Part shown: piece by piece, positions 1 through 24,543 of the stretch
How the letters are laid out: the number at the start of each line of letters is the position of its first letter
Numbering within the stretch: the stretch's first letter is position 1
IMG/VR virus record: IMGVR_UViG_3300008267_000030
Coordinates: 1-64,000 of that record
Strand: one strand, 5' to 3'
Source: a virus
DNA length: 64,000 nucleotides
The notes under the pieces: generated by a model
Databases searched by the model: none
The model's input: only the letters and a program-made list of their open reading frames with translations
Told to the model about the DNA's origin: nothing
Made by a program: the position numbers and the translations under genes

Positions 1-153
1 ACACCTGACTACATCCGACGCAATGCAGGCAGGGCAGGCGGCAGCCCTCCGCTCTTCCTTACCTGCTCTGTGCATCGGTCATCCATCGCTTCGCACGCAC
101 GCTATATATAGGGGAAATCCGGCCTGCTCAAACCTTACATGATTTGATGTAAG

Positions 154-208
154 ATTTCCTGCAATATCGTTGCAAGAAATATGCATGACTCTGCTGTATC
201 TTGCGCCC
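154..208 (+). promoter_or_regulatory. Putative first early promoter with palindromic operator-like site
   Basis: Palindrome TGCAAT-atc-GTTGCA (160-174, extendable to 154-180), then TATCTTGCGCCC (197-208), a variant of the Bacteroidota -7 element TAnnTTTG. A similar arrangement occurs at 3313-3356. Confidence 0.55.
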
Positions 209-254
209 ATCGGGCGGCAGGTCGCAGCCCACTAACCAAAAAACCTAAATACCT

Positions 255-647
255 ATGTCAGAACAAGTTAAGACAATCGAATTTGCAGGAAAGCAAGTCG
301 AAACAATTGATTGCACACCTACATGGAGGTGGGCGATGTCCGTTTATATCCTTGCAATCGCTCAGAAAGGCATGAATGCCAAAGATGCGATAGCAGACCT
401 TGAGCGTCTCGCTGATAATGTTGACGCAAAGCATAAGCAGGAAATGGAGGAGATTAAGAAACTGCAGACCATGGCCGACAATCAGGAGCGGCTGCTGCTT
501 AATCTGCGTGAGATTGCTGAGCGCAAGAGGCTGACATTCTCCAATAATGCCCTCTACGATTACGAGCGTGCCAAGTTCATCGGCATGATTGAAGCCATGC
601 GCACTCTGGGGATGGATGTCGAACCTTACAATTGGATTAACCTATGA
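255..647 (+). CDS. Hypothetical early protein, coiled-coil
   Basis: 130-aa ORF with an A-rich leader, first gene after the putative promoter. Confidence 0.75.
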   Translation: MSEQVKTIEFAGKQVETIDCTPTWRWAMSVYILAIAQKGMNAKDAIADLERLADNVDAKHKQEMEEIKKLQTMADNQERLLLNLREIAERKRLTFSNNALYDYERAKFIGMIEAMRTLGMDVEPYNWINL

Positions 648-751
648 AAGCCATCCGCAAATTTCTGAGCATTCCCGATTTCGATGTTATGCTCATCACC
701 TTGTTTTTTACCATCTGTTTCATCCTTCTAACCATTCAAATTTTCTCATGA
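644..751 (+). CDS. 35-aa single-TM peptide (not in ORF track)
   Basis: MKAIRKFLSIPDFDVMLITLFFTICFILLTIQIFS*; ATGA overlaps at both ends. Confidence 0.65.
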   Translation: MKAIRKFLSIPDFDVMLITLFFTICFILLTIQIFS

Positions 752-981
752 AAACCAACCTCACACCTTCGCCGCTGCGCCGTCTGATGACGGCCTGCGG
801 CCTTTTCGCTGCTCTGCCGTTCACGCTGCTGCTGACGGCCATCATTGCGTTCAGATTTCTCTGCTTTGTCCATGCTCCATTCGGATGCATGGAAACACCT
901 TACTACATCGTTTGCTTTGTTGGCAGCATTGCCATCATCTGCTTTGCGACTGCATCATATAGCCACATCTTCGAAGACTAA
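748..981 (+). CDS. Small two-TM membrane protein
   Basis: Internal ATG (MKTNLTP...) coupled to the upstream stop; two hydrophobic stretches. Confidence 0.65.
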   Translation: MKTNLTPSPLRRLMTACGLFAALPFTLLLTAIIAFRFLCFVHAPFGCMETPYYIVCFVGSIAIICFATASYSHIFED

Positions 982-982
982 T

Positions 983-1123
983 ATGCAGGTTCTTAACTCT
1001 CTCAAATCATGGGCAGGTCGGGCAATTACCGACCTGTTCATTTGCTTTATCATCTGCGCAGGTTTTCTCGGATTGTTCTCCGTGATTGCCTTCGCTGAAT
1101 TTCTCATTGACTTAATTTTCTAA
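983..1123 (+). CDS. 46-aa single-TM protein
   Basis: MQVLNSLK...LFICFIICAGFLGLFSVIAFAEFLIDLIF; starts 1 nt after the previous stop. Confidence 0.6.
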   Translation: MQVLNSLKSWAGRAITDLFICFIICAGFLGLFSVIAFAEFLIDLIF

Positions 1124-1143
1124 CCAACTAATTTCTTACCATT

Positions 1144-1350
1144 ATGTTACCCATGTATCTTATTGTCCTCGATTTTAACACCGGAATGGCCATCCAGTAC
1201 ACCATCACTCCGGAGCATCAAGCCATGGATGCCGATGAACTGCTGACTGCTCTCGGCCATCGGGAAAAGGACTGCCATTGGATGTTCGGCTCTGAACCGA
1301 TTGAAGAGCGTGATGCCGCTGATTATGATGACGGAATCCGTGAAATCTAA
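1144..1350 (+). CDS. Hypothetical protein
   Basis: 68-aa ORF with the TAACCAACTAA leader motif. Confidence 0.7.
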   Translation: MLPMYLIVLDFNTGMAIQYTITPEHQAMDADELLTALGHREKDCHWMFGSEPIEERDAADYDDGIREI

Positions 1351-1354
1351 GACC

Positions 1355-1807
1355 ATGCAACAACTGATTGATTTCATGCCTCCATCCGGTGTTGAAGTTA
1401 TCCCTGCCCATTATCGGGCAGGGAATACTGCTTTGACCTCTCCGCAATTGTGTGAGACCTTCCTGCGCTCCGTATGGCCTTCAATCGAATGCCGTGAGTC
1501 TTTCTATGCCGTATTTCTCAACCAATCGCTGAAGCCTATGTCATACGCTAAAATTGCGGATGGCGGAATTTCTTCGGTATTGGTCGATGTCCGGATTCTG
1601 TTCAAATACGCAGTTGATAGCATGGCCTCCGGCATGGTCATCGCTCACAACCATCCGAGCGGAAAATTTGAGGCATCCATGCATGACGAAAAACTTACCA
1701 ACAAAATCAAATTGGGATGCGAGATTTTAGAGTTTCGCCTCCTTGACCACATCATTTTAATGCCGGAATCCGGCTTCTATTCCTTCGCTGAGAACGGCAG
1801 AGTCTAA
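1355..1807 (+). CDS. radC: RadC-like JAB/MPN domain protein
   Basis: ESFYAVFLN...GGISSVLVDVR...IAHNHPSG...S-x-HD...LLDHII motifs; start taken at ATG 1355. Confidence 0.93.
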   Translation: MQQLIDFMPPSGVEVIPAHYRAGNTALTSPQLCETFLRSVWPSIECRESFYAVFLNQSLKPMSYAKIADGGISSVLVDVRILFKYAVDSMASGMVIAHNHPSGKFEASMHDEKLTNKIKLGCEILEFRLLDHIILMPESGFYSFAENGRV

Positions 1808-1812
1808 CCTCA

Positions 1813-1862
1813 TCCGGATGCCGATAGGCGGGCATTGGGTTCGATTCCCACATCCGGAGCAA
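1813..1862 (+). ncRNA. tRNA-like minihelix (acceptor stem + T-arm, no anticodon arm)
   Basis: TCCGGAT (1813-1819) pairs with ATCCGGA (1852-1858); T-arm TGGG-TTCGATT-CCCA; 3' end GCAA. Confidence 0.6.
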
Positions 1863-1895
1863 TGCATTAACGCAGATTCCAAACCAATTAAACAC

Positions 1896-2210
1896 ATGAG
1901 AAAAAGCACTGTTCTTTTTTCCTTCCTTCTCTGCTTCGGTCATGCCGTTGCAGGGCAGAATTTTATGCTGAAAAGACCCGGCACATCATCCGCCAGGCAC
2001 AAACAAATTGACCTGCGCATCCGTGAGGAACGCAGAGAAACGGCCATCAATTGCTTCTACTTGTCCGCTTTGGTGGCCGGCATCGTTCTGCCTCGTTTGT
2101 ATCCGGATAACCCCAAAATTCACATGGGCATTCCTGCAAGTATCGCAGTAAGTACCATGACTTACGCTTTTTATATTGACAACAGAAAACCAAACAAATT
2201 CAGAAAATGA
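1896..2210 (+). CDS. Membrane/exported protein
   Basis: ATG follows AAACCAATTAAACAC; signal-peptide-like N-terminus (MRKSTVLFSFLLCFGHAVAG) and two hydrophobic segments. Confidence 0.7.
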   Translation: MRKSTVLFSFLLCFGHAVAGQNFMLKRPGTSSARHKQIDLRIREERRETAINCFYLSALVAGIVLPRLYPDNPKIHMGIPASIAVSTMTYAFYIDNRKPNKFRK

Positions 2211-2437
2211 GAACTACAATCGAAAGCGACCTCCGTGTATTCATGGTGGTAACAAGAGAAGGCAAAACTGCATTCTGCAATATCGAAGACTTAAACCAAG
2301 TTGTGAAGGAATTGAAATGCCGTGAGGGTTATTTCGCCATCTATGACATTTGGAACAACAAGCCAAAAAAGGTAAGTCAGAAAAACCTTACTGCATTCTT
2401 TGAGGGCGCAGGATTAAAGCAGGAATTTTTTTATTAA
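2207..2437 (+). CDS. Hypothetical protein
   Basis: 76-aa ORF, ATGA coupling. Confidence 0.7.
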   Translation: MRTTIESDLRVFMVVTREGKTAFCNIEDLNQVVKELKCREGYFAIYDIWNNKPKKVSQKNLTAFFEGAGLKQEFFY

Positions 2438-2451
2438 ACCAATTTACAGAC

Positions 2452-2784
2452 ATGACTATTATCACGAATTTCGACATGACAAGAAAGAGCAGGGTTTTCC
2501 CCTGCTCTGCAGGATGGAAAGCAGAATTGTACGCTGAACACATTTGTCCGGAATCCTGCACTCTGGTAGATGAAACCATTGACGGCAGGACATTCCGCAC
2601 GATGTTAGAGGCAGAAACATGGGCGAGAGGAATCTGCCTGCAGAAGCCGGACAAAAGCAGGCATCCATTACTTGAAAAGGTAAACAAGTTCAGAGAAGTA
2701 GCGGAGGACATTGCGAACGATTTCGCCCTGCCTGCTGAGTCTGCAGACCACATTACCGAGACTTTACTTAAACGCTTTTGCTGA
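2452..2784 (+). CDS. Hypothetical protein
   Basis: 110-aa ORF with the AACCAATT leader. Confidence 0.7.
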   Translation: MTIITNFDMTRKSRVFPCSAGWKAELYAEHICPESCTLVDETIDGRTFRTMLEAETWARGICLQKPDKSRHPLLEKVNKFREVAEDIANDFALPAESADHITETLLKRFC

Positions 2785-2785
2785 T

Positions 2786-2992
2786 ATGAGACCGACCGAC
2801 ATCATCCACATCCGAGTAACATTCGAGGACGAATTTTCCGGAGCGACCTTAGTGAAAGAAGTATCCCGAAGCATGGAGACATTTGTCTCTATGCAGGCGA
2901 GTATCGGGCAGATTGTCCGCAGGTTTGAGAACGGCATCTCATGGGCATGGCGAGTAATCAAAATTGAGCATATTGGACATGGAGCAGACTAA
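2786..2992 (+). CDS. Hypothetical protein
   Basis: Internal ATG (MRPTDIIH...) 1 nt after the previous stop. Confidence 0.6.
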   Translation: MRPTDIIHIRVTFEDEFSGATLVKEVSRSMETFVSMQASIGQIVRRFENGISWAWRVIKIEHIGHGAD

Positions 2993-3254
2993 GCATCAGA
3001 AGTACGGCCAATACCCTCACGGGTTGAAGGCATACACGCACACCAAGAGCGTTATCTATGACCTGATGATGTACAACATCGAACAACAAAAGTTAGGCGA
3101 TTCTACCCTGCTTTCTGACGATTTTGTGGCAGGTATCGCAATGGAGTTTGAGAGGCTGAACTTTCGGCAGAAATGGAAGCCGGATTCCGAAGCATGGGAA
3201 GACCATCTTGTTGGGTTTTGCGAGATCAAGACAAAGCAGCACTTGAAAGCATGA
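2979..3254 (+). CDS. Hypothetical protein, likely paralog of the C-terminal domain of 4017..4529
   Basis: YPHG...EFERLN...W...WED pattern; last gene before the terminator. Confidence 0.65.
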   Translation: MEQTKHQKYGQYPHGLKAYTHTKSVIYDLMMYNIEQQKLGDSTLLSDDFVAGIAMEFERLNFRQKWKPDSEAWEDHLVGFCEIKTKQHLKA

Positions 3255-3274
3255 GTACTGCGGGCAGGTTAAAG

Positions 3275-3301
3275 ATAGGGGAGCAATCCCCTATTTTTTT
3301 T
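3275..3301 (+). terminator. Intrinsic terminator
   Basis: ATAGGGGA-GCAA-TCCCCTAT stem with GNRA loop, then a T-tract. Confidence 0.9.
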
Positions 3302-3312
3302 GCAGAAATTAT

Positions 3313-3356
3313 TGCAATCATATTGCAGTCTCAAATAATCCTTTAATATTGCGCCC
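3313..3356 (+). promoter_or_regulatory. Putative second early promoter with palindromic operator-like site
   Basis: TGCAAT-cat-ATTGCA (3313-3327) and TAATATTGCGCCC (3344-3356), directly after the terminator. Confidence 0.6.
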
Positions 3357-3377
3357 TTAAACCAATTAAATATTTAC

Positions 3378-4013
3378 ATGATTAACTTACAGAAAAACAA
3401 GTGCGGAGGGCAGGATGCCCATTCTGCGCTAATTTATGACCTAAAGGCAGTATTAGCCAAGCATCAGGAAATTCCGGATTGGGTTGATTCCCTTGCGGAA
3501 AAAATAATGACAGAACCCAAGAGAGTAAAGTTTGATGGAGTTAAGGTAATCCAGCAGATGGCTGAGGAAGATGTAATTTTGCAAGACCTTGAAAACCACA
3601 ACGAGATACTCAAGCAGCAATTTGAGCATGAGTGCCATCAGTATTATCTTAACCTAAATGAGCAGTTGTCCCCACTCGGTAAGGTGCTTGTATTATTCCG
3701 TAGAAACCATGAACTGCAGGGGCAGAACGAATGTCATTATGGAATGAGCGGAACGCATTGCAGGATTATTGTAATGACTCAGAGGAGCCGGATTCTTATT
3801 GATTGCCTTACCGATTCTGAGCGAGTAACGCTTCCATATTCAAAGCGTGATTGGTTTTTCAGAAAAAATGGCAAGTATTTCTGTTTATCTTATCTCAATC
3901 ACAGATTGCCATGTTACAGAGAACTAAAACCTAATGTTAATAAGTTTGAGTCAATTCAAGAATTGCTTGACTCTACCCATTTTACTGAAATGCTTCATTA
4001 CATTATCCGCTAA
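3378..4013 (+). CDS. Hypothetical protein
   Basis: 211-aa ORF with the AACCAATTAAA leader. Confidence 0.75.
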   Translation: MINLQKNKCGGQDAHSALIYDLKAVLAKHQEIPDWVDSLAEKIMTEPKRVKFDGVKVIQQMAEEDVILQDLENHNEILKQQFEHECHQYYLNLNEQLSPLGKVLVLFRRNHELQGQNECHYGMSGTHCRIIVMTQRSRILIDCLTDSERVTLPYSKRDWFFRKNGKYFCLSYLNHRLPCYRELKPNVNKFESIQELLDSTHFTEMLHYIIR

Positions 4014-4016
4014 ATA

Positions 4017-4529
4017 ATGCTTATCCAAAATGAACCAAATCAAATGGCTTCCGTCTGGGTTGACGGCAGTTTTTTGTGCGTGATTGAGCCTACGCATAAT
4101 GCGCTCCCTACGCTTACTGATGCCCTGCAGGATAAGTATCCTAATGCGATTGAGGTCATTGTCTATGGCCGTGATTTCAAAGCCGAGTGTGAGAAAATTG
4201 GCATCATCGCAAAGGTGGTATATCAGTACCAATCCGAGGCCATTGAGATTGAACTGACATGGATAACCAACCGGAGCAACCGATTCCCTAACGGATTTGA
4301 TTCTTGGCAAGAGACGCATTGCGAAATATGCTTTGCCATCGGCATCGAAGCCAACAAGGAAGACTCTTCCGGAGTAGTTGAAGATGTGCGTGAAGCCGAC
4401 GGCATGGGCGGACTATGGGAACTTGCCAAAGACCTGACAGATGCTTTTGAGAAGGCCAACGAGGGCAGGCAATGGGATGGCGAATGGATAGACGAGATAG
4501 ATGCTTACATACAATCAAAACTTAAATAA
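4017..4529 (+). CDS. Two-domain hypothetical protein
   Basis: 170 aa; C-terminal half FPNGFDSWQETH...LWELAKDLTDAFE...W...W. Confidence 0.75.
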   Translation: MLIQNEPNQMASVWVDGSFLCVIEPTHNALPTLTDALQDKYPNAIEVIVYGRDFKAECEKIGIIAKVVYQYQSEAIEIELTWITNRSNRFPNGFDSWQETHCEICFAIGIEANKEDSSGVVEDVREADGMGGLWELAKDLTDAFEKANEGRQWDGEWIDEIDAYIQSKLK

Positions 4530-4533
4530 TACC

Positions 4534-4992
4534 ATGAACAAGAACATAACACCGATGCAGATTCTTGAAGAACTGCACGATCTAAATGACCGGTTTGGCG
4601 AAATGGGATTTCCGGTTTCAGTCTTTGTGAACGGAGACCGGTATCCGGTTCAGAGCATTGATACATTCTACAACTATGACGAGCGCAGGAAGCGCACGGG
4701 AGTGCATAGCATGGACATCAACGCAGAGGTTAAGGTAATGCTCAACTCATTCCCGACATCGCAGCACAGCCTCATTGAAGCAGCAAGGAAGGTGCTTACG
4801 GATGCAGGCTATTATGTGGACAACCTTTGGCATATCGAAGATGTAACGAGCCGCTACAAATGCGATGAAACAACGGCCATGGCCATGCTTGACTCCGCCC
4901 TGACCCATAGTTGGATTGTTGAGAAAATCAACGAAACAATTGACGAAATGGCCAACGAGGATGAAATCGAAAGAAAAGACGATGATGAGTAA
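4534..4992 (+). CDS. Hypothetical protein
   Basis: ATG 4534 just after the previous stop; contains NLWHIEDV. Confidence 0.7.
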   Translation: MNKNITPMQILEELHDLNDRFGEMGFPVSVFVNGDRYPVQSIDTFYNYDERRKRTGVHSMDINAEVKVMLNSFPTSQHSLIEAARKVLTDAGYYVDNLWHIEDVTSRYKCDETTAMAMLDSALTHSWIVEKINETIDEMANEDEIERKDDDE

Positions 4993-5290
4993 GCCAGGCA
5001 TTTTAGCGAAGACCCACGCAATCCATCTGCATACCGGAACGAATGCAGATGGCCGCATCCGGAAGGAGTACATGGTAGTTGTACTTGACAAAGAGCCGGA
5101 AAGCCCGCAGGCATTGTTTGCAAAACTGCTCAGCGAAGCCAAGTCTGTATCATACTTTCACAGATTTTCATCACACGGTCTTGAGTCAGGTAGCCATTGC
5201 GTTTACCATGTTACTGCCGTGTATCCATCCCGTGAGGAACAAGTCGAAGAATACATTTACGGAGACCAAAGCGATGACTACAATGACTGA
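4982..5290 (+). CDS. Hypothetical protein
   Basis: Internal ATG overlapping the upstream gene end. Confidence 0.6.
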   Translation: MMSKPGILAKTHAIHLHTGTNADGRIRKEYMVVVLDKEPESPQALFAKLLSEAKSVSYFHRFSSHGLESGSHCVYHVTAVYPSREEQVEEYIYGDQSDDYND

Positions 5291-5600
5291 GAAATATTCA
5301 TGGGGTTTAGTCTGGGCAGACCTTGATTTCAAGACCTACAAGACCACGCATCCGATTCTGTCCGGCAGGGTAACACCTGCACGGGCAGGCAGGATTAAGC
5401 AGCACTTTGAGCGCATCAATGCTGACCTATCTGCGCCATACGGAGTATCTCCGAATGGGTATGCATATACCTGCGGATGCGAACACGATTGCTGCGGATG
5501 CCTTGTCCGGCAGCGGTACAAGGTTCTGTTTCAGCAGACCGATTTCGGTTCAGACGAGTACGATGTTCATTTGGAATTTAAGGAAACTTACAACTACTAA
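5283..5600 (+). CDS. Cys-cluster (CGCEHDCCGC) protein, putatively metal-binding
   Basis: Motif visible in the translation; start could be 5274. Confidence 0.7.
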   Translation: MTEKYSWGLVWADLDFKTYKTTHPILSGRVTPARAGRIKQHFERINADLSAPYGVSPNGYAYTCGCEHDCCGCLVRQRYKVLFQQTDFGSDEYDVHLEFKETYNY

Positions 5601-5644
5601 GCACGATGGTCGCAGGCGGGGTTCGACTCCCTGCCGTGCTGCAA
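5600..5644 (+). ncRNA. tRNA-like minihelix (acceptor stem + T-arm, no anticodon arm)
   Basis: AGCACG (5600-5605) pairs with CGTGCT (5635-5640); T-arm CGGGG-TTCGACT-CCCTG; D-loop-like TGGT; 3' end GCAA. Confidence 0.6.
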
Positions 5645-5685
5645 TGCGGGATATTCCGCAGATACTTAAACCAATTATTAAACAC

Positions 5686-5940
5686 ATGGAAATTGTGAAT
5701 TATTCCGAAAAGGCGATAGCCGTAATCGGAGAGACCCGTCCGCACTCCGATGCTCTGAAGGGCATGGGAGGCCGCTTTAACCGCTATCTTAAATGCGGTG
5801 CTGGCTGGATATTCAGCCAAAAGAAACGAGCCGAGGTAGAGGCATTCATTGCCAAGGCCGGAGCCGGATCATCGGAACCTGCCGACAGAGGCATGGCGAG
5901 TTATATTGATGCGCAACTTGAAGCCGGATACAACAGATGA
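5686..5940 (+). CDS. Small conserved phage protein (YSEKAIAV-G...GGRFN...GAGWIF family)
   Basis: ATG after AACCAATTATTAAACAC; motif pattern familiar from phage/MGE proteins. Confidence 0.75.
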   Translation: MEIVNYSEKAIAVIGETRPHSDALKGMGGRFNRYLKCGAGWIFSQKKRAEVEAFIAKAGAGSSEPADRGMASYIDAQLEAGYNR

Positions 5941-6353
5941 GAACCTGCGAGATAACCAACGAGGTACTTACCCACGAAGGGTTTGTAATCTATGATGGCG
6001 AGATGTATGCCGCCACCGAGGAAGCCGCTGAGCAGATTGCTAAAGATGCGGGTTATGAATCCTGGGCAGAGATGCACCAAGAAAATCCGGATACCTGCTA
6101 TTGGACTGAATGGGACGATTGCGAGGATTGGTTTGATGGCCAATTTGAGGAGGGTGTGGATTACCTGCCCGTGTATCATGACCAACTCGAACTTGATGAC
6201 GATATGATTACCATTTACCGGTTCTGCCCATTCCGCCTTGTGCCATCAGTAATGGCGGAGGAGTTTGGAGACCGGATGGTAAGCCTTGGCAGATGGTCAT
6301 CGTACTGCGTTCCTCAGTTATGTACTCAACCAATTCAATTTATACTGCCATGA
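5937..6353 (+). CDS. Acidic hypothetical protein (YWTEW motif)
   Basis: 138-aa ORF, ATGA coupling. Confidence 0.7.
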   Translation: MRTCEITNEVLTHEGFVIYDGEMYAATEEAAEQIAKDAGYESWAEMHQENPDTCYWTEWDDCEDWFDGQFEEGVDYLPVYHDQLELDDDMITIYRFCPFRLVPSVMAEEFGDRMVSLGRWSSYCVPQLCTQPIQFILP

Positions 6354-6658
6354 TTAAAGATTGGAGAAAATACAATCACTACGCTTTGTCAACTGCATCA
6401 ATGGAGGAATCCATTGGTGCAGCCATAGCAACCAAGTCTCCTGATTTTACCGAAGGCCACAAGACTCTGGAGAAGTTCTTGGATGCCTTTGTAACTGCCC
6501 TGCAGGAGCATTACGATTGCACCCTTGATGTCATTGACCATGATTTGCTCAAGGATGACATGAGATACACCCGAACCATTCGTGTCTTGGTGCATGGATA
6601 TGGGGAGGGCAATGAGTACTACGAGAACATTTTATTAACCCCTTTATTTATTTACTGA
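6350..6658 (+). CDS. Hypothetical protein
   Basis: ATGA coupling, AACCAATT leader. Confidence 0.7.
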   Translation: MIKDWRKYNHYALSTASMEESIGAAIATKSPDFTEGHKTLEKFLDAFVTALQEHYDCTLDVIDHDLLKDDMRYTRTIRVLVHGYGEGNEYYENILLTPLFIY

Positions 6659-6659
6659 T

Positions 6660-7076
6660 ATGGAAGTATTTGGAGAATTTGAATGGCCGGAGGATTTCCA
6701 ATGGCCTGACTCGCATTCCGAGTCTATGATTTACATGGGTCTTGTTCATGACTATGGGCAGATGGCAATGTGCGGAATTGAACTCCGGTACAAGGAGGAG
6801 GAATACGCTGCATCCAAGGCCGATTTGTTAGCCAAAGGCATGAATGTTTGCCTTGAGGACATCTTGTTTAATATCGTCAAAATGGGTAACTTATGGGAAA
6901 TTTATGACGAGGAAAACGAGGAAACGCTGGAAATGCTTAGCCTTGAACAAATGAAGCAGAACATCCGTAAGATGCCTGCAAAATGGTGGATGCAATTTGT
7001 TGAGGGCAGAGACGATTCTGAGACGGCCAATGTTGCACTTCAATGCGCTTTTTTTGGCGATATAGTTTATGGATAA
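6660..7076 (+). CDS. Hypothetical protein with C-terminal D..TA...LQ...FG.IVYG motif
   Basis: 138-aa ORF; C-terminal motif resembles a recurrent phage family. Confidence 0.75.
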   Translation: MEVFGEFEWPEDFQWPDSHSESMIYMGLVHDYGQMAMCGIELRYKEEEYAASKADLLAKGMNVCLEDILFNIVKMGNLWEIYDEENEETLEMLSLEQMKQNIRKMPAKWWMQFVEGRDDSETANVALQCAFFGDIVYG

Positions 7077-7380
7077 TTCATTTGATTGGAAATCCATTTT
7101 TGAGAGCGATAGTGTCCTTCGGGTAAGCAATTATCCGGAGGACATCCTCCAACTCGCAGGAGACATCCGGATTATGCCGTCGGTCAATGCCAGGGCGATT
7201 GATATTATCCTTTTGGAGATTGAGCGTGATAATGATCCGATTGAACTTCTTCGTGGGTTGTTATCTGTTGACCTGCCTGCACACGGCATGGGTACACTAC
7301 TAAAATTATCTTCTGCTCGGAGTAAACCTCTGGCCGAGTTAGCGAAGATGGAACTTACCATCAGAGGGCATTTAAACTAA
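7069..7380 (+). CDS. Hypothetical protein
   Basis: 103-aa ORF tiling the operon. Confidence 0.65.
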   Translation: MDNSFDWKSIFESDSVLRVSNYPEDILQLAGDIRIMPSVNARAIDIILLEIERDNDPIELLRGLLSVDLPAHGMGTLLKLSSARSKPLAELAKMELTIRGHLN

Positions 7381-7394
7381 AATTCTTTATCTCT

Positions 7395-7760
7395 ATGATT
7401 CCAGTATTTGTCGAAGCAGCAATCTCCGAACTGCAGGCCATGTGGCCGGAAGGAGAACATTTTCCAACCATGGATTGGGATGGAAGCGGTTATCGTTTGA
7501 AGGGCAAACGGCACTATTACCGCAGGGGCAAATGCCCGCTTGAATTGTATCGGGATGAAATCAAACACCGGATTGCAGAGTTTAGCCGCTTGTGCGAAGA
7601 CGATTCGTTTGTACCGGTATCCCCGTTTGACAAAATTCTGAATTGGTACAAATCTGATTGGTCAAGATATAGCGTGGCATTTGAGGCCATAACCAATGCT
7701 GAGCAGGATTACAAGTATAGTCAAATCATAAAAAAGCACAGAAGTGAAGGTGGTTGTTGA
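7395..7760 (+). CDS. Hypothetical protein
   Basis: 121-aa ORF tiling the operon. Confidence 0.65.
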   Translation: MIPVFVEAAISELQAMWPEGEHFPTMDWDGSGYRLKGKRHYYRRGKCPLELYRDEIKHRIAEFSRLCEDDSFVPVSPFDKILNWYKSDWSRYSVAFEAITNAEQDYKYSQIIKKHRSEGGC

Positions 7761-7941
7761 TTTGATTTGGGGCGGGCTGATTATATCAGCCTGCACCCTT
7801 GTTGTTGCTGCAATGATTTATCATGAAGGGCAGTTTATCAGCATAGCCATTTTGCTTGGAGGTTTGGCGGCTTCGATTAGTATGACAGAGCAGTACCATT
7901 ACCGCAAGCGCAGGGATTTTTACGATAAATTCAAACGCTGA
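7744..7941 (+). CDS. Small two-TM membrane protein
   Basis: Two hydrophobic helices and a basic tail; GTG start. Confidence 0.6.
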   Translation: MKVVVDLIWGGLIISACTLVVAAMIYHEGQFISIAILLGGLAASISMTEQYHYRKRRDFYDKFKR

Positions 7942-8123
7942 TGGAGTACGCAATCATTTTGTTCTGCACTTGCCTTGCAGGAATGGGCATCTTCCGAAAG
8001 GCCGCTGAGATTTTTGACAGAGCGGACAACTTCTGGGATCGAATGGTCGGAGTTACCGGCCTTATGTTTATTATGTTGGCCATGGTGGCCTTTGGTTTTG
8101 TAACAATGTTTTTAATATCATGA
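7941..8123 (+). CDS. Small two-TM membrane protein
   Basis: Two hydrophobic helices; TGATG and ATGA couplings. Confidence 0.65.
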   Translation: MEYAIILFCTCLAGMGIFRKAAEIFDRADNFWDRMVGVTGLMFIMLAMVAFGFVTMFLIS

Positions 8124-9025
8124 GTAATATCACAAAGTACCCCGTAAAAGACTTCTTCAATAAAGATGGAGTCAAACAGAAATTTGCCGAACTACTTGGC
8201 AAGCGTTCCACCGGATTCATGACTGCCGTGCTGCAGGTTGTTGCTATGAGCGACAAACTCGCCCAGGCGGAGCCGGAATCTGTCTTCAATGCCGCTGCTA
8301 CTGCGGCCACACTTGACCTGTCTGTCAATCCAAATCTTGGGCAGGCATACATCATCCCCTACAATGTAAAGCGCAAGAATCCGGTTACCGGACGAGACGA
8401 GTGGGCAACTATGGCGCAACTGCAGATTGGGTACAAGGCATTCATTCAGTTCGCTCAGCGCACCGGCTTGTTTCAGACCATATCCGCTGCTCCGGTTTAT
8501 GAGGGGCAGTTATCTGAGAACAACCCGCTCACCGGACCGGTGTTTGACTGGACGAAAAAAGAGTCCGATAAGATTGTTGGTTTTGTGGCATACTTCAAAC
8601 TGCTGAATGGCTTTGAGAAGTATCTCTACATGACTGCAGAGGAAATGCAGGCGCACGGCAGCAAGTATTCCAAGACTTTCTCTTATGGCGATTCGCTTTG
8701 GAAAAAGGACTTTATCGGCATGGGCAACAAGACAGTCATCAAACTCCTGCTGAGTAAGTACGCTCCACTGAGCGTAGAAATGCAGGTGCATCAGGCAATC
8801 AAGTTTGACCAGGCTGTTGTTACAGACCTTGAACACGAAGAGGTTTTGTATCCGGATAACCCTACCACCGATGCCGTCGTTGTTGACCAGGAGAGCGAAC
8901 GCTTCCTCGCTCTTATAAAGGCCGCTAAATCGCCGATTGAACTCGCAGCATACGAGAGTACGCTTGCCGACTATCCGGAGCATCAGGAAGCGTTTAACGC
9001 ACTAAAATCATCTTTTAATTCTTAA
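8120..9025 (+). CDS. recT: RecT-family single-strand annealing protein
   Basis: LDLSVNPNLGQAYIIPY...AQLQIGYKAFIQFAQRTG...MGNKTVIKLLLSKYAPLS. Confidence 0.93.
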   Translation: MSNITKYPVKDFFNKDGVKQKFAELLGKRSTGFMTAVLQVVAMSDKLAQAEPESVFNAAATAATLDLSVNPNLGQAYIIPYNVKRKNPVTGRDEWATMAQLQIGYKAFIQFAQRTGLFQTISAAPVYEGQLSENNPLTGPVFDWTKKESDKIVGFVAYFKLLNGFEKYLYMTAEEMQAHGSKYSKTFSYGDSLWKKDFIGMGNKTVIKLLLSKYAPLSVEMQVHQAIKFDQAVVTDLEHEEVLYPDNPTTDAVVVDQESERFLALIKAAKSPIELAAYESTLADYPEHQEAFNALKSSFNS

Positions 9026-9037
9026 TCTATAATCTCT

Positions 9038-10036
9038 ATGAACAAACCCGTTTTATTCCGCTGCTCAGGACTGAGCAAACTTATGACTCAACCTCAGACC
9101 AAGTCTCCGAGGGAGAAGTATGACGAGGCCGTTGCCTCACTTAATGAGACCTCTGCAAAGTATGAGGGGACTGCCAACAAGGCCACGGCAACTGCCGCCA
9201 AGATGCTTGAGAAGATTGCCAAACTCGAAGTCCAGATAAAGGAACTCGAAGGCCGCAAGGACGAGATTCATCTGTCTGTAACCGCTAAGACCTACATCAA
9301 CCAGATGATAAGGCAGTTGAAGTGGGAGCGCAGGGAGTCGGTCAGCAACAAGTACACTCAGAAAGGCAACGAGGCCGAGGGCGATAGCACCACCTTGTTT
9401 ACTCTGCAGTTGGGCATGGGCATGATCTACAAGAATCAGAACCGCCTCAACAACGATTGGATTACCGGAGAGCCAGACCTTGCCACCAAGTCCGGCGATA
9501 TTCTGCCGTATGACATCAAGTCTTCATGGGATTGGTCAACCTTCCCGTATCCGGATATGGAACTTGACAACTCATACTATTGGCAGAACATGGGCTATAT
9601 GGCATTGACCGGAGCCAAGTCCTGGACTACTGCCTACTGCCTTGTGAACACTCCTGCTGAGTTGATAGAGCGTGAGCGAAATAGCATCTGGTATCGCATG
9701 GGATGCCCCGACAAAGCGTCGGAAGAGTGGCTGGAGCAGGCCATCATCCATGAGCGCAATAGCATCTACGATATGGAAGCGTTTCAGCGCAGGCTTGCCA
9801 TTACCAACTATCCGTATGAGTGGTCGTGTAACCCCCAGGAATGGGCGCACGATGTACCGGCTGCTGAGCGCATCATGCTCTTCAAGACAGACCGGGACGA
9901 GGAAGCGATTGCCGACATCTACGCTCAAGTCGAAAAGGCAAGGCAGTACATTGCCCTCAAAGACAAGGGCGGCAACGCAGGTAAGGAAGATGTGTTTGCA
10001 ACGCTTGGTCAAATCTTGAACCCACTAATGCCTTGA
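9038..10036 (+). CDS. Lambda-exonuclease/YqaJ-like PD-(D/E)xK exonuclease
   Basis: FRCS-L...KGNEAE...ITGEPD...DIKSSW...YYWQNMGYM; adjacent to recT. Confidence 0.88.
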   Translation: MNKPVLFRCSGLSKLMTQPQTKSPREKYDEAVASLNETSAKYEGTANKATATAAKMLEKIAKLEVQIKELEGRKDEIHLSVTAKTYINQMIRQLKWERRESVSNKYTQKGNEAEGDSTTLFTLQLGMGMIYKNQNRLNNDWITGEPDLATKSGDILPYDIKSSWDWSTFPYPDMELDNSYYWQNMGYMALTGAKSWTTAYCLVNTPAELIERERNSIWYRMGCPDKASEEWLEQAIIHERNSIYDMEAFQRRLAITNYPYEWSCNPQEWAHDVPAAERIMLFKTDRDEEAIADIYAQVEKARQYIALKDKGGNAGKEDVFATLGQILNPLMP

Positions 10037-10311
10037 TACGCATTTTCTCAGACGAGACGATTGAGTCCATCCACCGCAAGGGGATGGACCAATTGCGCTC
10101 GGAACTATCCATCCACACCCAGCAAACCATCTGTCAGCAGATGGGTTGGAAGAAGAATCGTTATCGTTTATTTTTCGCAGGCAAAATTGATAACCAAGTC
10201 AGAGCCATAGAAATAACCAAGTTGAGACTTTTGATTAGGTTTAACCAATCTGCCCTGCCTGGTGTTAAGGATGTATATTTATACCGAATGTTAGGAAAAC
10301 AATCTAAATAA
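10033..10311 (+). CDS. Hypothetical protein, possibly HTH
   Basis: 92 aa, basic; TQQTICQQMGW resembles an HTH turn. Confidence 0.55.
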   Translation: MIRIFSDETIESIHRKGMDQLRSELSIHTQQTICQQMGWKKNRYRLFFAGKIDNQVRAIEITKLRLLIRFNQSALPGVKDVYLYRMLGKQSK

Positions 10312-10313
10312 TT

Positions 10314-10613
10314 ATGGCAAGAACAATAACAGACAGAGACCTTGAGTTTGCGTTTGAGTTTGAAGGCGAAAATTACGGGGCAAAAGTTGATGTCGTGTAC
10401 AAGTACATGGGTAAGTCCGGAATAGGCTCCTATGAATATTGGGGCGAAAAAGGATATGATGTGGGAGAGGATTTGTATGAGGGCAACCATGTAGCGATTA
10501 CTGAGGTAGAAGACCAGTACGGGAATCTAATTCCGGTTTCTAAGTTGTCTCAGTCAATGATTGAGTACATTTGCGAATTGGCATACGAGTACAGCGAATG
10601 CCCTGTTGATTGA
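10314..10613 (+). CDS. Acidic hypothetical protein (GIGSYEYWG motif)
   Basis: 99-aa ORF. Confidence 0.7.
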   Translation: MARTITDRDLEFAFEFEGENYGAKVDVVYKYMGKSGIGSYEYWGEKGYDVGEDLYEGNHVAITEVEDQYGNLIPVSKLSQSMIEYICELAYEYSECPVD

Positions 10614-10990
10614 TGCTAAAGCCAAAAGACATGATTCAGTTTCGCAGCCTTCTTGCCCCAGGCAAGGAGTACGAACTGCTGATGTTTATTGCCCGTGCCT
10701 GGAGGCCATCCGGATCGGGCGAGGTTGTGGTCAGGAGCGTTGGTCAGGCAATGAGTATTGTGCTTGAACTTTCAGACCTTGACCAGAACGCATGGCTTTT
10801 AAGGTCGCTGCAGGATACTACGCTGCAGGCTTTTATACACGCTCAGAAACCTTCATATATTCGCTTTGTCATTCCGCTCGAAAAGGCAGGATGGATAAAG
10901 CACAAGGTATATGATAAAGTAATTTCAAAGGATTGGGAATGGCTTACAATATCTGATAGGAATGTTTACCGCCGTCATAAGTCATCCTGA
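10613..10990 (+). CDS. Hypothetical protein, last early gene
   Basis: TGATG coupling; ends before the bidirectional terminator. Confidence 0.65.
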   Translation: MLKPKDMIQFRSLLAPGKEYELLMFIARAWRPSGSGEVVVRSVGQAMSIVLELSDLDQNAWLLRSLQDTTLQAFIHAQKPSYIRFVIPLEKAGWIKHKVYDKVISKDWEWLTISDRNVYRRHKSS

Positions 10991-11030
10991 TGCAAACACC
11001 TTGTTTTAGTGTTTAATTGGTTAGTTAGCA

Positions 11031-11064
11031 AAAATAAAGAACCCGGGTTTTGCCCGGGTTTTTT
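11031..11064. terminator. Bidirectional intrinsic terminator between convergent early and late regions
   Basis: AACCCGGG...CCCGGGTT stem (11040-11060) flanked by A-rich and T-rich tracts. Confidence 0.85.
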
Positions 11065-11065
11065 G

Positions 11066-11434
11066 CTATTTGAAGAATCCTTTTATGTTTTCCCATATTC
11101 GGTCAAGATGCCCCAACTTTCTTAGTTGCTCGACATCTACAACCAGGTCTTCTCCATCTGTCTTCTCTTTTTCTTTCTCCTTTTCGGCCATTGCCTCCTT
11201 TTTACGGACATAATTTATGCGTCTATAAAGAAGGTACATGGAACCGATTTGCCAGACCATTGTCCAGAAGAAATCAATCCAGTTGTATATCTCCCATCCG
11301 TTGAAATACTTGTAGGTTCCATCTTGAACCCAATTCCAAAAATTATAGGCAGAAACTACCCAGACGAATATGTCTTGAAAATTCTCGATCACTCTTTGTT
11401 TAATAATCAATATGTTTTCCGCCTGGGTTTGCAT
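11066..11434 (-). CDS. Membrane protein, possible holin
   Basis: Trp-rich hydrophobic segments and a charged C-terminus at the end of the late operon. Confidence 0.5.
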   Translation of the reverse strand: MQTQAENILIIKQRVIENFQDIFVWVVSAYNFWNWVQDGTYKYFNGWEIYNWIDFFWTMVWQIGSMYLLYRRINYVRKKEAMAEKEKEKEKTDGEDLVVDVEQLRKLGHLDRIWENIKGFFK

Positions 11435-22055: not shown

Positions 22056-23012
22056 TTATTCTCCGGATACGACCGTTTTAAGGGCCTTTTCCAGTTCTTT
22101 CTGCATAATCAACTTGTCTGCAGCGCCTTTGCTTCCAAGCAGGTAGTTGACCAGGGTCTGCTTTTGCGACTTTTCATCAGTGTCTTCCGCAAAATTAACA
22201 ATGCCCTTGTTGCCGGTTTTGCCTTTGGTAAAGTACCAGCCCAGTCCTGCCTTGTCATTGACAATGATGCCCATGGTAATAGCATCATCGATTTGCTGAC
22301 GGATTTTAAGAGCATCAAGGTCCTGAATTGCTTCAACGACTTTGTTGGGATCGTTTTGAACAAAGGCATCCAGATAAACGATGAGCGGCTGCAGGGCTTT
22401 TGTCCCTGTGTATGGAGCGACCGGATTAAGTTGCTGACTCAACGCATACAGCACCTCAACATCGGTAATCTGCTCAAGCGCACGTTCGGCGGAACGACGC
22501 TGCTCAATCATAGACGCCCTGGCGTTAATCATTGCGGCCTCATTAACGTACTCTACCAGATACGGAGAACCGTTGTTGTCAAGGCCAAGTACATTATCCT
22601 TGTTAAACGGCGCCAGCATAAGAGCATACCAGGCAAGTTGATCCTCTACATTATTTTTGTAAAGAGTAATCATGCCGTTTTCGTCGCCAAAGAACACCTT
22701 CCGAATTGCAACTGGCCTGCCTTCTTGAGTATTGATAAAAGCGCAAATTTTATAGGCGTTTCCAGATTCTCTGTCCAGAAGAGTGTATCCTAATTTGATG
22801 CTAAAAGTGCCAATTGATTTGACGTAAAAAGGAGTTCCATCTTCTTTGCCGCCATCACGAACTCGAACTGGAACCCACCAACTTTGGCCAACTCGAAACT
22901 TTTCCTCCTCCTGCATTGGAGGGACTTTTTTAAACAACTGTGGGCAATTGTTGTAAATTTCGCTATCGCTTACTTTGTAAACCGGTAGCCCCACATTTTC
23001 ATTTTCTTTCAT
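22056..23012 (-). CDS. Conserved hypothetical protein downstream of the major capsid gene
   Basis: Start MKENEN at 23012, below the terminator; position typical of crAss-like capsid modules. Confidence 0.7.
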   Translation of the reverse strand: MKENENVGLPVYKVSDSEIYNNCPQLFKKVPPMQEEEKFRVGQSWWVPVRVRDGGKEDGTPFYVKSIGTFSIKLGYTLLDRESGNAYKICAFINTQEGRPVAIRKVFFGDENGMITLYKNNVEDQLAWYALMLAPFNKDNVLGLDNNGSPYLVEYVNEAAMINARASMIEQRRSAERALEQITDVEVLYALSQQLNPVAPYTGTKALQPLIVYLDAFVQNDPNKVVEAIQDLDALKIRQQIDDAITMGIIVNDKAGLGWYFTKGKTGNKGIVNFAEDTDEKSQKQTLVNYLLGSKGAADKLIMQKELEKALKTVVSGE

Positions 23013-23043
23013 AAGTATTTTTTTATTTGGTTGCAAAATACAT

Positions 23044-23065
23044 AAAAAAGGGGCATTACTGCCCC
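23044..23065 (-). terminator. Intrinsic terminator after the major capsid gene
   Basis: GGGGCA-GTAA-TGCCCC followed by T6 on the - strand. Confidence 0.85.
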
Positions 23066-23085
23066 CTTTTCTTTTTTTGGCACTA

Positions 23086-24543
23086 TTAGGCTGTGCGTAC
23101 AAAGAACATTGACTTTTTGGCTCCCTGCATACGGAATGCGGTAGTTTCAGTCAGTGTCATGCGGCTTGCCTCATAGCCAAGGATGGCAGAACCCTGAAAA
23201 ATTTCATTGCGAAGAGCCTGAGTTCCATCTCCATTGCGCTGCTCAAGGTTGAGGATAGCAAATTCAGGAACAGAACCAGGAGTTGCGAATGAATTTTGGT
23301 CCTGAGCATCAGCGTAGCCACGTCCGGCAGATACGATGGTGTTTGACCTTTCGTAGTAAGACGCAGTAATAGAAGATGCAAAGGTCTTGGTGTTCATCAA
23401 CTCTGGGTGAGCATATTCACGAACCGGTTTGATGTGGTGCGTAAATCCTGCTTCAGCATCAACAATTGACGCAAAACCAAGTTTAATTGCACGATCCCGG
23501 GCGCCAGTATCTCCACCAAATGCGTCATAGCGCAGGTTGGTTTGAGTAGCAGTACCCTGATCGAGCAGACCGGAAAGACCAACCTTGAACTCAAATCCCA
23601 TAAAGTGAGTCAGTTCAGAACCCATTTGACCAGCGCCCCTTGCATAACGAACAACTTCACGAAGCCATTCTCTGGCGAGAACATTGGTTGACAAATCGGT
23701 TGTGAGGTCAGAGTATCCAAAAGCCTGGGCAAGCGGAATAAGACCAACGGTTTTCTGGCGTCCGTTGTAGGAAGAGCCGTCAGCAATCAGAACGTCAATT
23801 GACTTGAGGATTTCATGACGAACGTAGGTGTCCAGTTTTGCAATCAGGTCTTCAAAGTATTTACCCTGTACGCTGTACTGCTTCATCAGTGAGCCAGCAA
23901 GCATGGTAATTTCCGGCTGAGAGGTCATCATATACTGGAACAGCACGTCAAAACGGCTGTCTGTCTGACTCATTCCCTGTGGAAAAGTATCTTTTTCCTT
24001 AGATGCGTCGGCCAGGAAAGAGATTTTTTTACCGGCAGTAAAAAGGGCGGCATCTCCAGCGCTTGCGCAAGCAATGGTAATTGTGTGGTTGTTGTTTGTG
24101 GCAACAGGCTTACTTACAGCGGTAATCTGGCCTTGTACAGGACCGCCATCAAGAAGCACATATTGACGAACAATACCGGGAGACACATAGTTAGGAGCCG
24201 CAACAGTACCAATGTTAAACACAGAGTTTGTGTTCAGAGTAATGGTTACGTTTGAACCGGAAACGGTTGGGCTGGCTCCAATTGTCGCTGCTTTAAAGCG
24301 GCTACCACGCTCAAAGTGAGTGTGTTTGGTGGTGTTGGTCGTTACGGTACGTCCGGTTTTCATGAAATACGTTGACATTGACTCCATGAAAAAATTCATG
24401 TCCTCAAAGTTTTGAAACGCTTTCTCGACTACATCACGACGAGTAACAAAATCTGCAATAATTTGTTGGGCCACTTCGGATTCGCCTGCGGCGTACCCAA
24501 ACGGGCCTTGCCCGGTGGTAATTAAAAGATCATTTGCTGCCAT
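23086..24543 (-). CDS. Major capsid protein (HK97 fold, crAss-like)
   Basis: 485 aa; follows portal and scaffold and precedes a strong terminator; KTVGLIP...G, IKLGF.SI...G.T.HIK...HP. Confidence 0.8.
   Translation of the reverse strand: MAANDLLITTGQGPFGYAAGESEVAQQIIADFVTRRDVVEKAFQNFEDMNFFMESMSTYFMKTGRTVTTNTTKHTHFERGSRFKAATIGASPTVSGSNVTITLNTNSVFNIGTVAAPNYVSPGIVRQYVLLDGGPVQGQITAVSKPVATNNNHTITIACASAGDAALFTAGKKISFLADASKEKDTFPQGMSQTDSRFDVLFQYMMTSQPEITMLAGSLMKQYSVQGKYFEDLIAKLDTYVRHEILKSIDVLIADGSSYNGRQKTVGLIPLAQAFGYSDLTTDLSTNVLAREWLREVVRYARGAGQMGSELTHFMGFEFKVGLSGLLDQGTATQTNLRYDAFGGDTGARDRAIKLGFASIVDAEAGFTHHIKPVREYAHPELMNTKTFASSITASYYERSNTIVSAGRGYADAQDQNSFATPGSVPEFAILNLEQRNGDGTQALRNEIFQGSAILGYEASRMTLTETTAFRMQGAKKSMFFVRTA

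Follow-up and report, generated by a model that had tools for sequence, protein, structure and literature searches.

OppZ of Vibrio cholerae and PcrX of Rhodobacter sphaeroides are sRNAs derived from 3' untranslated regions (3'UTRs) that act on their own operons, OppZ on an intergenic region and PcrX on its parental mRNA (PMC9438474). Both are demonstrated RNAs that are made by RNase E, depend on Hfq and carry conserved seeds. Among phages, C4 of P1 and P7, encoded in the immI operon, acts on ant (PMC8201110). C4 lies in the same transcription unit as its target and upstream of it, and is a processed, structured RNA that uses two short seeds and serves one gene pair for immunity. Citron and Schuster reportedly described the c4 mechanism in 1990, in which translation of downstream genes is blocked where short segments of the RNA base-pair with the ribosome-binding region. 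C4 is the nearest phage precedent for an RNA that occludes this region in genes of its own unit. T4 RegA is a protein that represses translation of many early mRNAs, and a short A/U-rich element shared at early-gene starts would let one such factor silence the set.

Here we analyze a convergent gene junction in a 64,000-nucleotide window (the whole stretch of DNA considered), with which an IMG/VR record of 72,149 bases begins; the record is linear and ~75% complete. A preliminary description of this junction had noticed that a 14-nt word at the 3' end of the plus-strand gene block is antisense to a motif in front of that block's genes, and had proposed a 3'UTR-derived sRNA that could shut off many early genes at once. 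The resemblance to OppZ and PcrX lies in a candidate seed that follows the last stop codon and precedes the intrinsic terminator of the operon, in predicted targets that are intergenic leaders of the same block, and in the feedback logic. Unlike OppZ and PcrX, the phage candidate is predicted from sequence, belongs to a phage of a probably Hfq-less host, and would address a leader box that recurs through the block, not one individual site. Like C4, it would be a phage RNA from the same transcription unit as its target with short complementarity at the ribosome-binding region; unlike C4, it is located at the 3' end, has no structure beyond the terminator, and would face several leaders. The short A/U-rich element shared at gene starts recalls RegA-type repression, but that factor is a protein, and we identified no RegA-like gene in the phage studied. 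A RegA-type protein acting on AACCAA would give the outcome envisaged in the preliminary description, with the inverted copy then irrelevant or a decoy. The reading that we prefer, and hold with slightly less than even confidence, is that positions 10991-11065 form a terminator spacer that carries an orphan inverted copy of the box and has no regulatory role in trans.

Gene blocks and plausible host

The plus-strand block (1-10990) holds ~27 small genes, including those for a RadC-like JAB protein, RecT and an exonuclease. From 11066 onward all genes lie on the minus strand and include tail-fibre-like genes and those for portal, TerL, DnaB and a 4026-aa Strawberry-notch/methylase polyvalent protein. 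The earlier description of the plus block as early genes is itself an assumption. Two tRNA-mimic cassettes lie in the block (1811-1895 and 5600-5685), and two of the leader boxes described below ride on them; no tRNA was called in the window by ARAGORN.

TerL matches 87 phage records, all of them Flavobacteriia phages or uncultured (Flavobacterium 68, Cellulophaga 15, Tenacibaculum 2, Maribacter 1, uncultured 1), with 26-27% identity among the matches listed. None of 27 plus-block starts has GGAG, GAGG or AGGA at -20 to -4, and plus-block leaders are G-poor (14% vs 24%). Together with the TerL matches, the missing Shine-Dalgarno-like words and the scarcity of G make a host of the Bacteroidota type plausible. 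Hfq is not known from the likely host phylum. The 20 listed runs that contain the stretch are DNA, from freshwater metagenomes in 16 studies, and the lack of an RNA run among them weighs neither for nor against a transcript here.

A two-way terminator between convergent genes

The junction holds the following features:

10613-10990, plus strand: last plus-block ORF, 125 aa from ATG 10613, no family match, stop TGA at 10988-10990
10994-11014, plus strand: weak 6-bp hairpin, AAACAC (10994-10999) with GTGTTT (11009-11014), 9-nt loop
11009-11022, plus strand: inverted 14-mer GTGTTTAATTGGTT, exact reverse complement of 1882-1895
11026-11068, both strands: two-way intrinsic terminator, a hairpin with an A-run and a T-run between convergent ORFs
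11066-11434, minus strand: convergent ORF, 122 aa, no family match, its stop (11066-11068) touching the terminator

The core stem of the terminator consists of AACCCGGG (11040-11047) and CCCGGGTT (11053-11060) around a TTTTG loop, with an outer pairing of UAGCAAA and UUUGCUA. On the plus strand a T-run lies at 11059-11064, and an A-run at 11030-11034 is a T-run on the minus strand; a G+C-rich hairpin with a U-tract is therefore present on both strands, between convergent genes. Positions 10985-11070 fold at -27.7 kcal/mol on the plus strand (z = -3.85) and at -26.7 kcal/mol on the minus strand (z = -4.82), with none of 200 shuffles as good in either case. A terminator scan places the 11026-11068 terminator on the minus strand. 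Rfam gave no match at gathering scores; sub-threshold matches over 10907-11092 (rimP leader, Leu leader, ncr1015, anti-hemB and others) had E values of at least 0.16 and aligned the terminator hairpin only, and were set aside.

The terminator role of this segment is ordinary. Compared with bidirectional intrinsic terminators between convergent genes we found no difference, and only the 14-nt box copy in the spacer is unusual. As modeled from the fold, plus-strand transcripts should end near 11064 and minus-strand transcripts near 11030, and this two-way termination means that 11009-11022 would be transcribed mainly as the strand antisense to the leaders. The 14-mer lies between the last plus-strand stop (10988-10990) and the hairpin with its T-run ending at 11064, as had been described, 17 nt upstream of the terminator hairpin; the candidate seed spans 11009-11025. 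The preliminary description had also noted that GTGTTT can fold back on AAACAC. These pairs do appear in the minimum free energy structure of 10985-11070, but 10991-11040 folded alone is no better than its shuffles (-4.9 kcal/mol, z = +0.56, 139 of 200 shuffles equally good). If formed, the hairpin would hide some of the anti-leader's 5'-most third.

A strong terminator on both strands between convergent ORFs gives the segment an ordinary and sufficient function. Positions 10991-11065 are the spacer and two-way terminator that close the plus block (1-10990) and the minus block (11066 onward), and in the orphan-copy reading the inverted copy would be a by-product of descent at the block boundary. 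Its origin could be the leftover leader of a lost minus-strand gene, a past rearrangement at a short shared box, or an A/T-rich coincidence. The first of these requires a lost minus-strand gene, and the ORFs at the junction hold no trace of one. We infer that the inverted copy is functionless.

A strand-specific leader box ahead of plus-block starts

The motif in front of plus-block genes has the consensus of about tAAACCAATTAAAyAy, and precedes about one third of plus-block starts with a spacing of 8-16 nt. The following instances bear on the inverted copy:

233-239, plus strand: leader-box variant TAACCAA, 15 nt before ATG 255, with a 9-bp complement ACTAACCAA to 11017-11025
1121-1131, plus strand: leader-box variant TAACCAACTAA, before ATG 1144, with an 8-bp complement
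1882-1895, plus strand: leader box AACCAATTAAACAC, adjoining ATG 1896, final part of the tRNA-mimic cassette 1811-1895
2188-2193, plus strand: AACCAA, 13 nt before ATG 2207
2437-2444, plus strand: AACCAATT, 7 nt before ATG 2452
3360-3370, plus strand: AACCAATTAAA, the partial match listed earlier, before ATG 3378
3360-3373, plus strand: leader box AACCAATTAAATAT, 4 nt before ATG 3378, 15 bp with the 3'UTR, two of them G-U
5669-5685, plus strand: leader box AACCAATTATTAAACAC, adjoining ATG 5686, end of the second tRNA-mimic cassette 5600-5685
6328-6335, plus strand: AACCAATT, 14 nt before ATG 6350, which has an ATGA overlap with the preceding ORF

All six partial matches that had been reported before other starts are present, each ~8-16 nt before a plausible ATG. 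In 1-11000, AACCAA occurs 19 times on the plus strand vs 4 times on the minus strand. It lies at most 30 nt upstream of 8 of the 27 plus-block starts, where 0.73 are expected (Poisson p = 1e-6); this count is somewhat inflated, since the starts were curated by hand and three of them (1896, 5686 and 6350) were picked partly by their box or cassette. For the minus block, in which we took the first ATG of 49 greedily tiled ORFs, the corresponding figure is 3 of 49 (Fisher p = 0.013 vs the plus block). The strand-specific leader box in front of plus-block genes is thus real, and it is common to at least three uncultured phage genomes. L065, tried as a further carrier, has many AACCAA words, none of them at a leader, and was rejected.

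The inverted copy scores like a true leader box

Sequence reading and pattern search agree that 11009-11022 is the exact reverse complement of AACCAATTAAACAC at 1882-1895. The latter adjoins ATG 1896, as had been stated; this ATG is in frame with the ORF 1818-2210 and opens a signal-peptide-like MRKSTVLFSFLL. On the minus strand, 11009-11022 has the form of a full leader-box instance, cTAACCAATTAAACAC. The similarity between the two copies stops at the 14 nt, and their flanks are unlike.

By a plain count of inverted repeats, the exact 14-mer match is not beyond chance. The window contains 21 exact 14-mer inverted pairs, compared with 13.1 +/- 4.3 in 30 dinucleotide shuffles (maximum 24), and the 14-mer with at most 3 mismatches has 10 matches where 11.7 +/- 4.0 are expected. 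We also built a weight matrix from nine leaders, leaving out 1882. The held-out 1882 copy scores 17.8 bits and the inverted copy 15.4 bits, or 17.1 bits when 1882 is included; true instances span 12.6-21.5 bits, which puts the inverted copy at their level. It is the top box match in the 72-kb record outside the training leaders, the runner-up scoring 14.0 bits. Dinucleotide shuffles give 0.83 expected matches of at least 15.4 bits per genome. When the 21 intergenic segments (2519 nt in all) are shuffled 2000 times with composition kept, 1.4% of trials contain an equal match somewhere (p ~0.014), and for this segment and orientation 0.1% of 20,000 shuffles do; like all match statistics here, these are post hoc, the site having been picked for its match. 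The intergenic figure makes pure coincidence a strained explanation of the copy.

Predicted pairing with the leaders

One alternative takes up the idea of an anti-leader RNA. In this account the 3' end of the plus-block transcript pairs through GUGUUUAAUUGGUUAGU with a few leader boxes of its own block and blocks their translation, as negative feedback; the anti-leader would act either within the mRNA or after release as a short species with its 3' end at the terminator, and would cover the last 14-18 nt before the AUG. Its main candidate targets are 1896 and 3378 and its weaker ones 255, 1144 and 5686, all of them leaders without a Shine-Dalgarno sequence. We consider this possible and, on balance, unlikely.

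We modeled the pairing as an ungapped helix plus accessibility against the 27 plus-block leaders. RNA duplexfold on 50-nt partners had proved uninformative, with 24 of 27 leaders reaching -10 kcal/mol or lower through long interior loops. The ungapped calculation ranks two leaders as strong partners of the 3'UTR, 1896 at -12.7 kcal/mol (14 bp, -14 to -1) and 3378 at -9.2 kcal/mol (15 bp including two G-U, -18 to -4); the predicted duplexes end at -1 and -4 relative to the AUG. Pairing with 255 (-8.2 kcal/mol), 1144 (-6.3) and 5686 (-5.8) is moderate. Opening the predicted targets costs 0-1.1 kcal/mol, leaving them predicted to be open. The two differences of the 3378 leader are C-to-U, which means that its pairing with G residues of the 3'UTR is kept; these G residues tolerate C/U variation in the leaders, and the 3' part, UUGGUUAGU, also pairs with ACUAACCAA, the form that the box takes at 255 and 1144.

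For the other 22 of the 27 leaders, predicted pairing is -5.0 kcal/mol or weaker. The proposal that many early genes are shut off at once is therefore overstated; two strong and three moderate partners are predicted. None of 300 seed shuffles reaches the best energy or the top-5 sum of the 3'UTR. With targets of -25 to +6, the 3'UTR is the only locus in the record to reach its top-5 pairing sum; it is one of 7 loci by best single energy, and 50 loci equal it by the number of leaders at -6 kcal/mol or lower. With wide targets (-60 to +30), in contrast, 140,828 natural 35-nt windows of the record were compared, and the site ranks no higher than their top 1.3%.

The location suits an anti-leader, with the candidate seed behind the last stop (10988-10990) and just upstream of the strong, shared terminator hairpin (11040-11064), and so does its rank as the top box match outside the training set (intergenic p = 0.014). 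OppZ and PcrX offer a precedent for action on the own operon or parental mRNA (PMC9438474). Weighing on the other side are inverted-repeat statistics at chance level, the weak pairing of most leaders, and the post hoc nature of all the statistics for a site picked for its match. An RNA made in step with its targets would moreover be a damper and not a timed shut-off. The likely host phylum is also not known to have Hfq.

In its fuller form, in which a 3'UTR anti-leader in a phage of an Hfq-less, Shine-Dalgarno-less host of the Bacteroidota type masks the shared box of own-block genes, we regard the proposal as doubtful. Rising transcript levels would then lead the block to damp its own translation, acting on target genes that tRNA-mimic cassettes would otherwise release from the long transcript. 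If true, it would mean that phages use self-regulating 3'UTR RNAs of the OppZ/PcrX kind, this being the first phage case of feedback by a 3'UTR RNA inside its own operon, and one directed at a repeated box instead of a single site. A whole family of leaders that lack Shine-Dalgarno sequences would come under one short RNA, in hosts whose RNA control is little understood, and this RNA would be linked to the tRNA-mimic processing cassettes of the plus block. The solid results are a real strand-specific leader box, an ordinary two-way terminator and one well-placed inverted box copy; together they offer a cheap and well-defined target for small-RNA sequencing if the host is found.

Distant relatives

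The tRNA-mimic cassette led to a pair of distant relatives, here called G1 (65 kb) and G2 (68 kb), whose virion genes are syntenic at 22-55% identity. G1 has 9 cassettes and G2 7-8, and their leaders often hold AAACCAA. In both, the cassette block likewise stops where genes converge, at what looks like a two-way terminator, behind a non-orthologous terminal gene. TTGGTT is found in the block-terminal 3'UTR of neither relative (0 of 2; non-orthologous 3'UTRs), which speaks against an anti-leader. The G1 terminal spacer GCATGTGTG (GCAUGUGUG) is nevertheless predicted to pair across TACACATGC (UACACAUGC) at one start codon, and across several other starts via G-U pairs. This pairing, which would favor an anti-leader, has p = 0.012 by best energy and 0.010 by top-5 sum in 500 shuffles, though CATG is self-complementary and shuffles flatter such matches. 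For G2 the corresponding values (0.056 and 0.158) are not significant and count against it.

The orphan-copy reading draws on several of these results: the commonness of 14-mer inverted pairs, the 10 near matches vs 11.7, the 0.83 equal matches per genome, the missing counterpart in both relatives, the unlike flanks, the mosaic end of the block (see below), the mere 2 of 27 leaders that pair strongly and the unstructured spacer. Opposed to it are the rank of the copy as top box match in the record, the 1.4% of intergenic shuffles, the top-5 pairing sum with 0 of 300 shuffles reaching it, transcription antisense to the leaders, the pairing kept through C-to-U changes, and a G1 3'UTR that does better than 99% of shuffles.

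Minus-strand and DNA-level roles

The inverted box might instead serve the minus strand. Here it would mark the start of a minus-strand transcript at a host-type promoter, giving either the leader of an unrecognized tiny ORF or an RNA antisense to gene 10613-10990 at its 3' end. TATTTTTG at 11036-11029 is a perfect match to TAnnTTTG, which we take to be the Bacteroidota -7 element of a host-type promoter (TACATTTG), and lies 6 nt upstream of the box; the box is in sense orientation there and scores like true leaders, and an 8-bp hairpin is possible just downstream in the minus RNA. The same match is, however, the terminator's own T-tract. For an opposite-strand promoter of the lambda OOP kind, TATTTTTG is present but within that tract, and there is no TTTG or TTG -33 element upstream, the hairpin filling that space. 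TAnnTTTG occurs 75 times in the record without a link to the box, and in three genomes only 3 other cases lie before an AACCAA-like word on either strand, none at a gene start. We found no consistent association and rejected the box as a start site behind such promoters.

A minus-strand leader fares no better. On the minus strand a TAA follows the inverted box, and no ORF of at least 20 aa that uses it was found behind 11009-11022, which answers the concern, raised with the first proposal, that the motif might serve a translated minus-strand ORF. The nearest minus-strand ATGs lie 31 and 39 nt past the AACCAA core, opening frames of 13 and 17 codons and falling outside the 6-16 nt start-codon spacing of true leaders. 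We consider a minus-strand function improbable.

A role at the DNA level is, in our judgment, more improbable still. The 14-bp copies could be the ends of a past or active 9.1-kb inversion, or the box could be bound by a phage protein in either orientation. In favor, the two repeats match exactly in inverted orientation, and the second lies exactly at the junction of the opposed blocks. In G1 and G2 the cassette block is differently placed and oriented relative to the virion genes, which indicates that rearrangements have happened in the lineage. Flipping would give, along the minus strand, the order terminator, TATTTTTG, box and ATG of gene 1896; the conserved cassette 1811-1895 would be left without its gene. 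No serine or tyrosine recombinase was detected (PF00239 and PF00589, 0 matches in the 72-kb record, which is ~75% complete), and the 7 joints listed from four runs include no strand change, in contigs that hide rare forms. Contigs run straight through both copies (X15 through 10979-11129, X17 across 1824-1895), and both orientations were not seen among the contigs of the four runs; we rejected an inversion switch. The strand bias of the box, 19 vs 4 in 1-11000, argues for an RNA-level rather than a DNA-level signal.

Natural variation at the junction

DNA relatives of the flanking genes were found in none of INPHARED, IMG/VR, the JGI metagenomes and the GTDB genomes, and a search with the exonuclease returned only loci of 35% identity, which were left out of the comparison. 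In a protein collection, the product of 10613-10990 has relatives P0001 (99%), P0002 (84%, encoded on a Logan contig of 71.8 kb) and P0003 (78%). P0002 ends in ...PSANTLF, which 10992-11008 encodes in another frame. The ...ANTLF terminus suggests that this part of the spacer is probably kept in the 84% relative; it is silent on 11009-11022. A ~90%-alike contig in run X17 is unlike the record after 10405, making the end of the block mosaic. The four aligned runs show 692 differences in total, 3 of them in the X15 contig through the junction.

A composite tRNA-mimic cassette in the window and in distant phages

The block of small plus-strand genes at the start of the window carries a composite element that joins an armless tRNA mimic to the leader of the following gene:

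1811-1895 and 5600-5685, plus strand: composite tRNA-mimic cassette, two copies
1-30: truncated copy of the cassette

The 5' part of the cassette consists of an acceptor stem and a T-arm (GGTTCGAyTCCC), without an anticodon arm. It is followed in order by GCAA, a short trailer hairpin (TGCnn..nnGCA), GATT or GATA, the AACCAA leader and the ATG. The stem sequence of the trailer hairpin varies among cassette copies while its pairing is kept. ARAGORN called no tRNA in the cassette copies. Against the mascRNA-menRNA model, positions 5600-5640 score 23.7 bits (E 0.42), which falls short of the threshold.

Cassettes of the same kind precede nearly all genes in a 5-kb block of G1 and G2, two uncultured phages of 65-68 kb that are distant relatives of the window's phage:

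G1 (record of loci L005 and L018), about 10.0-15.9 kb: 9 cassette copies
G2 (record of loci L030 and L041), about 10.1-15.4 kb: 7-8 cassette copies

Their acceptor-stem words, TCCGGAG/CTCCGGA, resemble those of the window cassettes, and the trailer hairpins co-vary.

The trailer accompanies mimics and genuine tRNAs

About 35 IMG/VR contigs (among L004-L054) also carry the trailer (GCAATGC-hairpin-GCAG), placed 3' of a tRNA-like element and upstream of one conserved gene, beginning ATGGCAACTTCTAAATTGAAC. Two examples are:

L013, 8535-8650: trailer after a tRNA-like element
L065, 6532-6640: trailer preceded by a genuine tRNA-Arg(tct)

The trailer is thus an independent unit, accompanying real tRNAs and mimics alike.

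Internal and terminal boundaries of the plus-strand block

A terminator-like feature lies inside the block:

1009-1041, plus strand: 13-bp hairpin with a T-rich tail

It lies about 80 nt upstream of the leader of the gene starting at 1144, and the block may comprise more than one transcription unit.

P0002, a relative of the last plus-block protein at 84% identity, is 5 residues longer than its counterpart in the window and ends in ANTLF. These residues correspond to window positions 10992-11008 in another reading frame (region 10988-11008), so a small indel shifts the stop codon of this gene between strains. A contig from the metagenome run X17, roughly 90% alike, tracks the window as far as 10405 and is unlike it beyond. 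The terminal plus-block genes are thus exchanged in that relative, with a mosaic boundary at about 10405.

Features of the late block

Two minus-strand features stand out:

22990-23085, minus strand: hairpin and T-run, then TATTTTG-c-AACCAAATAAAAAAATACTT-ATG, before a 348-aa ORF (region 22056-23102)
32566-44646, minus strand: 4026-aa protein with Strawberry-notch helicase domains (PF13872, PF13871)

The first looks like a terminator, promoter and leader box in series. The 4026-aa protein also has a weak DNA methyltransferase match, and this combination of domains marks it as polyvalent-protein-like.
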